A stretch of 61,457 nucleotides of DNA from an uncultured Ectothiorhodospiraceae bacterium (lineage in GTDB: Bacteria > Pseudomonadota > Gammaproteobacteria > S012-40): the NCBI GenBank assembly GCA_964636675.1, contig CAZWUO010000002.1, positions 1-61,457 on the forward strand, given 5' to 3'. Every line of letters begins with the position of its first letter. Within the stretch, counting starts at the first letter, position 1. The notes beneath the pieces were generated by a model. The model did no database searches, had not been told where the DNA came from, and saw only the letters and a program-made list of their open reading frames with translations. Of the stretch, positions 7,384 to 34,497 are shown in pieces. Made by a program: the position numbers and the translations under genes.

Positions 7384-7998
7384 ATGTATACAGCACTCAC
7401 AGCAACAAGTTTAACGTTGGCTAATCATATTGAGAATTGCTTTGTTAATACAACAGGCTTAGCACCTTTTTTTGATACCAATGTAGGCGGCAATATGGAA
7501 GTATCATTACATACTCCACAAGAAATGTCTGAACAACAGAATGAAGGTCTATCCGTCTGGCTTTACAGAGTTGTACGTGATGAAGATTTGTTGAATCGGC
7601 CACCGTTGCGTATTACAGATACCCAATTACAACGCATTCCATTACCTGTGCGTTTACACTATTTAATAACGCCCATTATCAATACAACAAACTTGGTTGC
7701 TGGTCCTGAATTGGAACAAACCGTTATCGGTAAAGTACTACAAGTATTTCATGATCATCCTTTATTGCGTGGCGGTGAGTTGCAAGGTGATCTAAGTGGT
7801 ACCAGTGTTGAAATTCGTGCGCGCTTGGAACCCTTAGGTTTGGAAGAAATTACGCGGGTTTGGGATGCTTTGGAGGCATCTTATCAACTTTCAGTATCAT
7901 ACGAAGTAAGTGTGATGGAAATAAATACGGCACGTGAACCAGAAAATATTGTGCCGGTGGATGTAGTCGTACCTGAATATGGTGTAATCGTGGGGTAG
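7384..7998 (+). CDS. DUF4255 / Pvc16-Afp16-like tail terminator (cap) protein
   Basis: 204 aa with the family-typical stretch LSVWLYRVVRDEDLLNRPP...IPLPVRLHYLITP...RVWDAL....LSVSYEVSV. Confidence 0.85.
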   Translation: MYTALTATSLTLANHIENCFVNTTGLAPFFDTNVGGNMEVSLHTPQEMSEQQNEGLSVWLYRVVRDEDLLNRPPLRITDTQLQRIPLPVRLHYLITPIINTTNLVAGPELEQTVIGKVLQVFHDHPLLRGGELQGDLSGTSVEIRARLEPLGLEEITRVWDALEASYQLSVSYEVSVMEINTAREPENIVPVDVVVPEYGVIVG

Positions 7999-8002
7999 TG
8001 TG

Positions 8003-32384: not shown

Positions 32385-34497
32385 CAAGCAGCGCCTTTTT
32401 CCTATCCAATTGCAACGTTTGGATTTGTTGCTGCATCGGCAGATATTGCGCCTACGGCAACGTTATCAGTTATCGCTCGATGAGTTTCGTGGTTTATATA
32501 TCAGTGATCAGCAAGTGGATGAACTTATTGATATACCCACTCGGGAAGCAAGCAACGTAACGGGCTGTGCTGAGCTAAATCAACAAAGCAAAGCCTTGCA
32601 ACAAGATGTTCAACAAGAACGCGCAAGGCAAAGTGTATGGCATTTGCTTACGCAGCGTTTTGCGCTGTCCGAGTTTGAACAAGACGTGTTATTGCTTGCT
32701 TTCGCATTAGACCTGGATATTAAATATGAATCCCTATTTGCTTATCTAAACAATGACATCACCAGCAAGTACCCCACTTGTGAATTAGCTTTGGCTTTGT
32801 TTAGTGATGGTTTGCAAGGTCGTGATAGTTTGCAATGCAACGCGACTTTATTTCGACTAGGGTTGTTGGTGAATATAGAGCACAATATAAATCGACCTTC
32901 ATGGCTAGGTCGCGGTTTCTATATCAATCCATTTCTTAGCCAATCCTTGACGGTAACAACATCAAATTCCAGCCGAATTAATGGCTATTTAAGGCAAGAC
33001 TTTTCAAGTACAACCTGGCAAGAAGTGCCATTGGCACAAGAGATTATTTTTCAGTGGCGCAATTTAAAAACTTTGTTACAAACACCTTCTCGGCAATCCA
33101 AAATGCTTTATATAAAGGGCAAGGCGGGTAGCGGTGGTCGTCGAGCATTGTTTACTTTAGCGGCGAAATTAGACAAGCCCATATTATCGGTGGCGCTGAA
33201 TACAATATTGAGTGAGAAAATTAACCATGATGACTGTATAAAAACAATCGTATTGCAACAAGCACTTTATGATAGCATCGTTTATATACATGGTATTGAA
33301 ACGACACAGTTTGTTAACGATACTTTTCATTTTATCCAAGGTTTGATTGCAGAGTTGGATTTTGTTGCACTCCGTGTTCCCGAAAATTTTACTTCGCCGC
33401 AAGAAAATTTTGATTCTCAGGTTTTAAGTATCCAATGTACAACTCCAGATGTTGAGCAACGTTGTAAGCTATGGCGACAACAGCTATCGTGTTTAAATTT
33501 GGCAGTAGGTCTTGCAACCAACTTAGCGGATTCTTTCGAACTCACACCACGGCAAATCGAAGCGACGATGTACTCGGCGTCAGCAACCGCTGTAATGGAA
33601 GGAGAAGTTATTACGACTGAGCACATGTTTGCGGCCGCCCGACAACAAACCGCACAGCAACTCCTACAGTTGGCGACCGTAGTTGAAACTCAATGTAGTT
33701 GGCATGACTTAAAGTTATCACCGGCGGTGAAAGAAACTATTTTTGAAATAAAAGCAGCCGTACAACACCGCCATGTGGTTTATGAAAAATGGGGTTTTGG
33801 TCGACGTAGCGCTTATGGACACGGGTTAAAGGTGTTGTTTTCCGGTAGCTCAGGTACAGGAAAAACGATGACAGCCAGTGTAATAGCTAAAGAGCTAGGA
33901 CTGAGTCTTTATAAAATTGATTTATCAGGCATTGTTAGCAAATATATTGGTGAAACGCAAAAAAACCTTGATCGCATTTTTAGTGCCGCCCAAGGCAGTA
34001 ACGCGATCATATTTTTTGATGAAGCTGATGCACTTTTTGGTAAACGCTCAGAAGTTAAAGACGCGCATGATCGCTATGCCAATATTGAATCAGCTTATTT
34101 ATTGCAAAAAATGGAAGACTATAACGGGGTTGTGATGTTAGCGACCAATCTAAGTAAAAACATCGACCAAGCGTTTATGCGTCGTCTACATTTTATTGTT
34201 GATTTTCCAATGCCAAACGATGTTTTACGTCTGGCTTTGTGGCGTGGTATCTTCGGAGACAAAACACCCCTAGCCGACGATGTAGATTTAGAATTTTTAG
34301 CGAAGCAATTTCGGCTTGCGGGTGGTGATATACGCAATGTCGCACTCAATGCCGCTTTTCTAGCAGCAGAGAATAAACAAGCCGTCAATATGAAACATCT
34401 GTTAAAAGCTATATCTCGGCAGATGATTAAACAAGGAAAAATACCGTCAGCAACGGAGTTTAAACATTATTATCAGGCTGTTGTGAAACGAGTGTAA
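32350..34497 (+). CDS. AAA+ ATPase, Afp15/Pvc15-like eCIS assembly/loading ATPase
   Basis: 715 aa. The N-terminus LQRLDLLLHRQILRLRQRYQLSLDEFRGLYISDQQVDELI is family-typical. There is a single C-terminal AAA+ module with Walker A GSSGTGKTM and Walker B IIFFDEADALFGKR. Confidence 0.9.
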   Translation: MNAIIDSIPQLSKQRLFPIQLQRLDLLLHRQILRLRQRYQLSLDEFRGLYISDQQVDELIDIPTREASNVTGCAELNQQSKALQQDVQQERARQSVWHLLTQRFALSEFEQDVLLLAFALDLDIKYESLFAYLNNDITSKYPTCELALALFSDGLQGRDSLQCNATLFRLGLLVNIEHNINRPSWLGRGFYINPFLSQSLTVTTSNSSRINGYLRQDFSSTTWQEVPLAQEIIFQWRNLKTLLQTPSRQSKMLYIKGKAGSGGRRALFTLAAKLDKPILSVALNTILSEKINHDDCIKTIVLQQALYDSIVYIHGIETTQFVNDTFHFIQGLIAELDFVALRVPENFTSPQENFDSQVLSIQCTTPDVEQRCKLWRQQLSCLNLAVGLATNLADSFELTPRQIEATMYSASATAVMEGEVITTEHMFAAARQQTAQQLLQLATVVETQCSWHDLKLSPAVKETIFEIKAAVQHRHVVYEKWGFGRRSAYGHGLKVLFSGSSGTGKTMTASVIAKELGLSLYKIDLSGIVSKYIGETQKNLDRIFSAAQGSNAIIFFDEADALFGKRSEVKDAHDRYANIESAYLLQKMEDYNGVVMLATNLSKNIDQAFMRRLHFIVDFPMPNDVLRLALWRGIFGDKTPLADDVDLEFLAKQFRLAGGDIRNVALNAAFLAAENKQAVNMKHLLKAISRQMIKQGKIPSATEFKHYYQAVVKRV

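Follow-up and report, generated by a model that had tools for sequence, protein, structure and literature searches.

The stretch of DNA analysed here (the window, 61,457 nucleotides of contig CAZWUO010000002.1 from an uncultured Ectothiorhodospiraceae bacterium) carries at positions 5953-42943 what its predicted genes identify as one chromosomal gene cluster for a contractile injection system (CIS) of the Afp/PVC superfamily. The cluster almost certainly belongs to CIS lineage II, and its predicted gene content and layout fit subtype IIb of the dbeCIS database on the published feature list, Afp6 being matched by position only. The explanation favoured here, taken as a whole, is that a lineage II, IIb-type cluster makes particles that would be released extracellularly, and it is given a probability of about 0.55.

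Identity and classification of the cluster

The core of the superfamily has been defined as Afp1/5, Afp2/3/4, Afp7, Afp8, Afp9, Afp11, Afp15 and Afp16 (Chen et al., 2019, PMC6899500). All eight components are present above Pfam cut-offs in one co-directional cluster. An earlier interpretation of positions 7384-34497, made from the letters alone (the sequence-only reading), had proposed a phage-tail-like CIS with a recognisable candidate for every core Afp/PVC role. This is borne out by the eight core components and by the Pfam check run on the open reading frames (ORFs), in which the cap, sheaths, tubes, LysM protein, hub, spike, gp25, Baseplate_J protein, Tail_P2_I wedge and ATPase were matched; the cluster is neither a prophage nor a type VI secretion system (T6SS).

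Placement in lineage II follows from the sheath and Baseplate_J matches, ranked by E-value rather than placed in a tree. The sheaths match those of subtypes IIa (PDB 9ezm) and IId (8bky and 8bl4) at 1e-77 to 1e-105, compared with 1e-24 to 1e-45 for subtypes Ia and Ib and about 1e-45 for Pvc2/Afp3; the tCIS sheath is far more distant as well. The Baseplate_J protein has a full-length match at 8e-73 to Cis11 of the IId Streptomyces CIS (chain 9gtp_1K), compared with 6e-8 to AlgoCIS. In the published classification, Afp8 is split in IIa, IIb and IIc, while IIb and IId have one Afp11 and IIa and IIc have two (PMC6899500). IIb alone lacks PAAR and alone has Afp6, divergent copies of Afp12/13 are a feature of IIa and IIb, and Afp14 is generally absent from lineage II (PMC6899500). 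The cluster described here has a split Afp8, one Baseplate_J gene, no PAAR gene, and a Tail_P2_I protein together with three CIS13_fam proteins. More distant loci with two Baseplate_J genes were told apart by tblastn.

All cluster proteins were compared by tblastn with 82 fetched loci (cited below by their L numbers, where needed). The nearest relative was recovered from a metagenome and has a sheath of 86% identity. The same gene order (cap, 384-amino acid (aa) gene, giant sheath, tube, second sheath, second tube, in some cases the 65-aa ORF, LysM protein, hub, spike, a variable gene, gp25, J and I) was found in two metagenome contigs of the close relative (L001 and L002) and in at least eight genomes (L003-L010), which represent Flexivirga, Nitrospira, Chloroflexia, Acidobacteria, Terriglobia, Rokubacteria, Burkholderiales and a gammaproteobacterial metagenome-assembled genome. 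Three IMG/VR contigs have this order too, and the flanks of the relatives consist of cellular genes. The cap gene in first place, the split hub and spike, the giant sheath, the extra gene and the lack of PAAR had all been singled out as unusual; they are present, but they are not peculiar to this locus. Since these traits fit IIb and recur across phyla, they represent the normal layout of the subtype. What is new is an intact locus of a catalogued subtype, the layout itself being already known and unsurprising to a specialist.

The ratio of nonsynonymous to synonymous substitution rates (dN/dS, Nei-Gojobori method) against the 86% relative was 0.03-0.39 in all 23 comparable genes. This purifying selection extends to the tape-measure candidate, to the genes of the 384-aa and 291-aa proteins, and to the two short ORFs of 65 and 74 aa.

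Extent and features of the cluster

The run of plus-strand ORFs is unbroken from about 5.9 kb to 43 kb of the window (ORF list), and the edges of the cluster are the points at which synteny with the nearest relative ends on both sides. This synteny delimits a unit of approximately 5953-42943, with a swappable cargo cassette inside it. The locus had previously been considered complete at 7384-34497. The ORFs in that interval, the cap start at 7384, the ATPase stop at 34497 and the plus-strand orientation all stand, but a regulator gene and a small gene upstream, and three DUF4157 genes downstream, also belong to the cluster. The overlapping stop and start codons reported in the same reading were seen again at 18099/18102, 18878/18881, 19750/19753 and 22136/22139. 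The features are as follows, with family matches given as E-values.

5953-6597, +: GerE/LuxR-type response regulator with an atypical receiver domain (Pfam GerE 2.9e-14; Response_reg below cut-off)
6825-7313, +: small conserved protein, approximately 143-162 aa (no Pfam match)
7384-7998, +: cap or tail terminator, Afp16/Cis16 (Pvc16_N 1.4e-34; dN/dS 0.07)
8000-9154, +: subtype-specific conserved all-beta protein of 384 aa, between cap and sheath
9239-12622, +: giant sheath of 1127 aa (Phage_sheath_1 and 1C, at the C-terminus only)
12714-13154, +: main tube protein of 146 aa, Afp1/Cis1a-like (Phage_T4_gp19 1.5e-45; dN/dS 0.03)
13259-15307, +: second sheath paralog of 682 aa (Phage_sheath_1 and 1C; PDB 8bky 3.5e-89)
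15294-15893, +: second tube paralog, Afp5/Cis1b-like (Phage_T4_gp19 1.2e-29)
15987-16184, +: conserved 65-aa ORF at the Afp6/Cis6 position (a gene of the same length is called in the relative)
16186-16881, +: LysM tube initiator, Afp7/Cis7 (CIS_tube 1.3e-28; LysM 1e-4)
16888-18102, +: gp27-like baseplate hub, N-terminal half of Afp8/VgrG (Phage_GPD 3.3e-11)
18099-18881, +: gp5-like spike, C-terminal half of Afp8/VgrG (Phage_base_V 9.9e-26)
18878-19753, +: 291-aa protein with a beta-helix-like C-terminal repeat, between spike and gp25 (Pfam: weak Bactofilin-like repeat only)
19750-20166, +: gp25-like sheath initiator, Afp9/Cis9 (GPW_gp25 1e-25)
20169-22139, +: Baseplate_J wedge, Afp11/Cis11, single copy (Baseplate_J 3.5e-21)
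22136-24334, +: Afp12/Cis12-like wedge with an N-terminal NHL-repeat domain (NHL 1.1e-9; Tail_P2_I 9.9e-7)
24386-26086, +: Cis13 paralog a, with a Cys-rich N-terminus, a short collagen-like G-x-y run and a C-terminal ComEA/PsbU-like helix-hairpin-helix
26079-27797, +: Cis13 paralog b, with 34 Cys in 572 residues, a hydrophobic helix at 323-352 and a C-terminal coiled coil (CIS13_fam 2.6e-6)
27955-30198, +: Cis13 paralog c, a tail fibre that contains phage-fibre repeats and ends in a lectin-like tip (CIS13_fam 1.6e-11)
30211-30435, +: 74-aa coiled-coil protein directly upstream of the tape-measure candidate (no family match)
30435-32384, +: tape-measure candidate at the Afp14 position (CIS_TMP 9e-4, 19 bits against a cut-off of 27.8)
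32350-34497, +: AAA+ ATPase, Afp15/Cis15 (WHD 6.6e-19; AAA 2.4e-27)
34674-35975, +: DUF4157/eCIS_core protein a, 433 aa, HEAAH (eCIS_core 2.2e-6; HExxH present)
36151-41250, +: DUF4157/eCIS_core protein b, 1699 aa, HELVH, with a metallo-beta-lactamase-fold segment (eCIS_core 7.4e-27; Lactamase_B 8.7e-6)
41285-42943, +: DUF4157/eCIS_core protein c, 552 aa, HEVAH, SprT-like (eCIS_core 1.6e-4; SprT-like 8e-4)

Sheaths, tubes and the cap-proximal genes

Alignment to the second sheath divides the giant sheath into a core (residues 1-120 and 613-1119) and an insert of approximately 490 aa, and the two sheaths share 28% identity over the core. The best PDB matches of the giant sheath are the haloarchaeal Cis2 (9ezm, 1e-105) and the Streptomyces Cis2 (8bky, 2e-97), and more than 100 full-length homologs share 53-65% identity with it. 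An AlphaFold2 (AF2) model of the insert (pLDDT 84) is all-beta and consists of a string of small beta-barrels, for which Foldseek found likeness at the level of single domains only, to phage tailspike barrels and EF-Tu domain 2. Among the homologs the insert ranges from 436 to 740 aa; it differs in length through the gain and loss of repeats, and this variability suggests a surface decoration. Clean sequence repeats were not resolved by self-alignment of the insert. A weak FliMN_C match within it was attributed to a small beta-barrel repeat, and kinship with flagellar or type III secretion proteins was rejected. The real start of the second tube gene is probably near 15339, the gene in the relative encoding 184 aa.

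Two neighbouring sheath genes are also found on plasmids (approximately 120-134 kb) of cultured Cereibacter sphaeroides and C. azotoformans strains. The encoded sheaths cover 57-69% of the giant sheath at approximately 38-40% identity. As the strains are cultivable, a related two-sheath CIS could be studied there.

The 384-aa protein encoded between the cap and the giant sheath had no match in Pfam, NCBIfam, PHROG or PDB sequence searches. It has 24 homologs and adjoins the giant sheath in every fetched locus carrying one. Its AF2 model (pLDDT 88) is a chain of beta-sandwich domains, and Foldseek returned single-domain matches only, with whole-chain TM-scores of at most 0.2. Whole-chain TM-scores for the sheath insert stayed within the same limit, and transfer of function by Foldseek was dropped for both. 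The predicted models of the two show no sign of an enzyme or of a membrane-binding module, and the 384-aa protein is possibly a decoration or an accessory of the cap or sheath.

The GerE-type product of 5953-6597 is the probable regulator of the cluster. Its gene holds the same position in the 86% relative (dN/dS 0.20), though the genes farther upstream differ, and GerE-type regulators adjoin a quarter of extracellular contractile injection system (eCIS) loci (Geller et al., PMC8213781). The small gene at 6825-7313 has an ortholog at the same position in L001 and L002 (65% identity, dN/dS 0.39) and was found only in this close relative.

Baseplate, hub and spike

The 65-aa ORF shares 77% identity with its counterpart in the relative (dN/dS 0.07) and has tblastn matches in L005, L006, L008 and L009. 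It has no Pfam or PDB match, and its correspondence to Afp6 is one of position only. The NHL/Tail_P2_I wedge gene is kept after the Baseplate_J gene in the loci of the family.

The 291-aa protein encoded between spike and gp25 is a candidate spike-tip protein or spike accessory. It has weak PHROG matches, and a search of PDB sequences gave nothing; orthologs are present in L001-L003, L005 and L021, and its dN/dS is 0.16. The slot that its gene occupies is variable, other members of the family holding unrelated genes there. In L004, L007, L010, L012 and L014, a protein of approximately 243-285 aa with an N-terminal motif like TIDIxLxxDL...C is encoded in this slot, while the slot holds an 89-aa gene in L006 and one for a Cys-containing protein of 237 aa in L008; none of these has a Pfam match. 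The slot proteins were also considered as PAAR or DUF4280 proteins, and Pfam found none in five family members. In the cluster itself, no protein matched PAAR_motif, DUF4280 or CIS_spike_tip, and the intergenic gaps are too short to hold an unannotated PAAR gene. The earlier statement that a PAAR protein is lacking is therefore confirmed by Pfam on all cluster proteins.

Cis13-family proteins, tape-measure candidate and ATPase

Three paralogous Cys-rich or fibre proteins had been described in the sequence-only reading. Their shared N-terminal domain proved to be NCBIfam CIS13_fam, and the third matches PHROG tail fibres. The Cys-rich N-terminal domain is common to all three and is predicted to be a common baseplate-docking domain, while their C-termini differ. 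Paralog a contains 24 Cys and matches CIS13_fam (1.8e-22), HHH_3 (2.7e-9) and the ComEA-related PDB entry 2duy (9e-6); its helix-hairpin-helix tip is unexpected for a fibre-like protein and could bind DNA. The N-terminus of paralog b resembles those of paralogs a and c, and its segment 323-352 is conserved in the relative, including an internal E and R. A buried helix fits these conserved charges better than a membrane span. Paralog c matches two PHROG tail-fibre families (6e-11 and 2e-10) and, weakly, Bdellovibrio bd2133 (PDB 8ond, 3e-4), and its C-terminus has weak Gp53-like_C and H_lectin matches.

The 74-aa coiled-coil protein shares 76% identity with that of the relative (dN/dS 0.10). Downstream of it, the proposal of a tape measure holds in that a conserved gene stands at the Afp14 position, but the CIS_TMP score lies below the cut-off. 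The family of this candidate comprises 1171 representatives at E<=1e-3, and an attempt to firm up the call through the family failed, since CIS_TMP was reached by 4 of the 37 members sampled; the candidate has no PDB match. The ATPase has intact Walker A (GSSGTGKT) and Walker B (IIFFDEAD) motifs and shares 93% identity with that of the relative.

The DUF4157 module

DUF4157 proteins of eCIS loci have the DUF4157 domain at the N-terminus, often a long linker, and a variable C-terminus (Geller et al., PMC8213781). Proteins a and b of this cluster are candidates for variable cargo, and protein b also matches a PDB beta-lactamase II entry at 5e-3. The conserved protein c could be either an accessory or an effector. 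Downstream as far as the ATPase gene, the relative retains the whole gene set. Protein a has no ortholog in the relative, where other genes stand: a 161-aa gene and a gene for a 1226-aa protein (L083, 12362-16688) replace a and b. The 1226-aa protein combines an N-terminal eCIS_core with a C-terminal PT-HINT/intein-like domain, and as far as these domains tell, the exchange of cargo is in the style of polymorphic toxins. After the cargo slot, the relative carries an ortholog of c, followed by unrelated two-partner-secretion genes. This ortholog (L083, 16820-18502, compared with 41285-42943) is 95% identical, with a synonymous divergence (dS) of only 0.21, against approximately 0.8-1.2 for most structural genes. 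Low dS was also obtained for the ATPase (0.36), Cis13 paralog a (0.41) and the spike (0.44), which suggests recent recombination or mosaic exchange within the cluster.

Comparison with known systems

The bioinformatically defined IIb systems of dbeCIS resemble the cluster in their eight core genes, split Afp8, single Afp11, divergent Afp12/13 and absence of PAAR, as well as in a small ORF at the Afp6 position (a positional likeness only) and in extra conserved genes. They differ in that Afp14 is usually absent from lineage II, whereas the conserved protein at that position here weakly matches CIS_TMP. Literature searches found no experimentally studied IIb system; beyond Chen et al. (2019), they gave one review citing its classification.

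The CIS of Streptomyces coelicolor and S. venezuelae (IId; PDB 8bky, 8bl4 and 9gtp) provides the closest solved Baseplate_J protein by sequence and, together with 9ezm, the closest solved sheaths. Its cap gene likewise codes for a single Cis16 protein, and it shares the pair of tube paralogs as well as the wedge genes for gp25, Cis11 and Cis12. The Streptomyces sheath is a single protein of 534 aa; the system has a contiguous VgrG, carries neither a tail fibre nor a tape-measure gene, requires the membrane protein CisA, stays cytoplasmic and kills its producer. In contrast, the cluster described here has two sheath genes, of which one encodes 1127 aa. Its hub and spike are separate ORFs, one of its three Cis13 paralogs is a fibre, and it carries DUF4157 cargo but no CisA-like protein. 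The hub/spike split, the position of the Cis13 paralogs downstream of the baseplate genes and the lack of a bitopic membrane protein all depart from the Streptomyces-type IId arrangement.

The CIS of Halogeometricum borinquense ('archaeal T6SS', IIa; PDB 9ezm) gives the best sheath match (1e-105) and likewise has Cis12 and Cis13. It is without cis6 and cis14, whereas the present cluster has an ORF at each of these positions. Also unlike the present cluster, it has two cis11 genes, is associated with a membrane protein of six helices, and is attached to the cytoplasmic membrane. Afp/PVC (Ia) and AlgoCIS (Ib), which are characterised as extracellular, comprise the same roles, including a 3' effector module, an ATPase and a tail fibre, with no membrane anchor in the cluster, but their sheath similarity is much lower (about 1e-35 to 1e-45). 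In Afp the cap gene stands at the end, one ORF encodes the whole VgrG, and there is a PAAR gene, afp10. The PDB sheath chains of Afp2-4, Pvc2-4 and AlgoCIS are 354-692 aa long, compared with 1127 aa here.

CISs are being engineered as programmable protein-delivery devices, and those engineered all come from the narrow Ia and Ib clades. Lineage II systems are common among bacteria of soil and sediment, but studies have reached only two of the four subtypes, neither of which kept to the 'extracellular' rule. The cluster is a compact, apparently functional IIb example with clear limits, its own probable regulator, a swappable DUF4157 cassette, three alternative baseplate attachments and a close relative for comparison. 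It is a reasonable candidate for characterising IIb and the role of the giant decorated sheath, and overturns nothing by itself.

Mode of action and alternative explanations

In the favoured explanation, the better-conserved giant sheath would make up most of the sheath and, with the 146-aa tube protein, most likely the bulk of the sheath-tube module. Its beta-barrel insert would face outward as a decoration. The 682-aa sheath and the longer tube protein would form specialised layers near the baseplate or cap, by analogy with Afp3/4/5 and Streptomyces Cis1b. The ATPase and the protein encoded upstream of it would aid assembly and the loading of the DUF4157 proteins, which would be cargo or cargo handlers. 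Particles would assemble free in the cytoplasm and be released on lysis of the producer, after which the fibre encoded at 27955-30198 would bind the target and sheath contraction would drive the tube, spike and effectors into it.

The PHROG tail-fibre match, the lectin-like tip and the DUF4157 cassette speak for release. Apart from the paralog b segment, a Kyte-Doolittle window (rather than a dedicated predictor) gave no clear transmembrane helix in the conserved cluster proteins, and no CisA-like or multi-pass membrane protein is encoded in the conserved unit. Several points weigh against extracellular release or against parts of the assignment. Among characterised systems, the closest relatives do not act extracellularly: the Streptomyces CIS is cytoplasmic, and the haloarchaeal CIS is attached to the membrane, with its Cis12 and Cis13 proposed as membrane contacts. 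The window has no lysis cassette, and paralog b has a conserved hydrophobic helix that could enter a membrane. The call of a tape measure is weak, the subtype was set from the published feature list rather than from a position in the dbeCIS tree, and the particles, their release and their target are deduced from the genes. The label eCIS given in the sequence-only reading applies as far as the contractile injection system is concerned, while its extracellular part is unproven, the nearest relatives working in the cell or at the membrane. The same reading had left the release route open, along with an intracellular or anchored mode, and rightly so.

The same machine could instead stay with the cell, either in the cytoplasm or docked at the inner membrane via Cis12/Cis13, and fire outward on contact in the manner of a T6SS, or inward or at the membrane for regulated death of the producer. 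This is a possible but rather unlikely alternative. It draws on the membrane-bound haloarchaeal (IIa) and cytoplasmic Streptomyces (IId) systems as the best solved matches, on the proposed membrane contacts of the former, on the missing lysis cassette and on the hydrophobic segment of paralog b, and the mode of action is not conserved within CIS clades. Neither a CisA-like bitopic protein nor a multi-pass anchor is encoded in or next to the conserved cluster, however, and the charges conserved in the hydrophobic segment suit a buried helix more. The phage-type, lectin-tipped fibre and the gene at the tape-measure position (a weak call) also argue for release, the Streptomyces system having neither. 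A further, improbable reading is that subtype IIb works by a CIS mode not yet described, built on the decorated sheath, three Cis13 adaptors on one socket and a spike-tip slot not filled by PAAR. The adaptors may then be a collagen-like stalk with a ComEA-like DNA-binding fold, a Cys-rich helical protein and the lectin-tipped fibre, and one possibility would be particles tethered to extracellular DNA, to the biofilm matrix or to the cell surface. If true, tethered particles would constitute a fourth mode of action.

Readings in which the cluster is no CIS of the Afp/PVC type fare far worse than extracellular release. Outside the cluster, the Pfam scan covered the opposite-strand ORFs of at least 100 aa save one, and every plus-strand ORF of that size apart from 4976-5434, which overlaps the oppositely oriented gene of a response regulator; opposite-strand shadow ORFs inside cluster genes are left aside. 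No PAAR, holin, endolysin, capsid, portal, terminase, integrase or TssJ/K/L/M match was obtained among the ORFs scanned in the window. A defective prophage remnant or an R-type tailocin, that is, a bare killing tail derived from a myovirus and carrying no loaded effectors, would explain the homology of sheath, tube and baseplate to phage tails, the pyocin sheath as a distant PDB match, the listing of family contigs as viral in IMG/VR, and the serine recombinase upstream in one relative. This reading is largely refuted and very improbable. The eCIS-specific Cis16/Pvc16_N cap, the AAA+ ATPase and the DUF4157 proteins are present, and no deposited phage sheath covers more than 36% of the giant sheath. 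The absence of head, integration and lysis genes noted earlier held for the ORFs of the 61-kb window, and capsid, portal, terminase, integrase and lysis genes are missing from the relatives' flanks as well. No tRNA, Rfam family or flanking direct repeat of at least 10 bp was found around the cluster and thus no integration signature, and all 23 comparable genes are under purifying selection. A canonical T6SS (i-iii) shares sheath, tube, VgrG-like and gp25-like modules with the cluster, but is already refuted by the predicted gene content: neither TssJ/L/M, TssK and TssA nor a ClpV-type recycling ATPase was found among the window ORFs scanned, and the cap, Baseplate_J and tape-measure-position genes are present, whereas T6SSs lack Afp11, Afp14 and Afp16 homologs. 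Adjacent capsid, portal or terminase genes and linked T6SS membrane-complex genes had been named beforehand as what would speak for a prophage or a T6SS.

In one relative, an IMG/VR contig (L085), a large serine recombinase gene (Resolvase and Recombinase domains) and a DUF2924 gene lie at 898-2612, approximately 2.3 kb upstream of the cap gene. This suggests that some copies of the cluster are carried on mobile or integrative elements.

Surroundings of the cluster

The flanking ORFs scanned are chromosomal in character. Among them are genes for radical SAM, MoCF and Crp proteins, two-component systems, a BT1 transporter, a PIN protein, PEMT and 7TMR-DISM kinases, as well as a CusA/CzcA resistance-nodulation-division (RND) operon. 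With 42-51%, the cluster is richer in G+C than parts of the flanks (33-39%), which is consistent with horizontal acquisition. Scans for promoter and terminator consensus sequences gave counts not above those of shuffled sequence and were uninformative on operon structure.

The heavy-metal RND efflux operon at 45516-51312 comprises three genes, for an outer-membrane factor, a HlyD-type adaptor and a CusA/CzcA pump. Its products share 84-87% identity with gammaproteobacterial and metagenomic homologs (84% with Ca. Tenderia electrophaga for the pump), and its G+C content exceeds that of the sequence farther downstream. The outer-membrane factor gene points to a diderm host and the best named matches of the pump, tentatively, to a gammaproteobacterial one, but such operons are prone to horizontal transfer and the evidence is weak. 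Two neighbouring 7TMR-DISM sensors are encoded at 52524-57343, the first being a hybrid histidine kinase with two receiver domains and the second having a HisKA_3-type core. The region of 57733-58302 and 58743-60651, with a G+C content of 33%, encodes a PIN-domain protein, possibly the toxin of a toxin-antitoxin pair. On the opposite strand of the same region, a 196-aa gene overlaps that of a 441-aa protein with a weak BlaR1/M56 peptidase motif.

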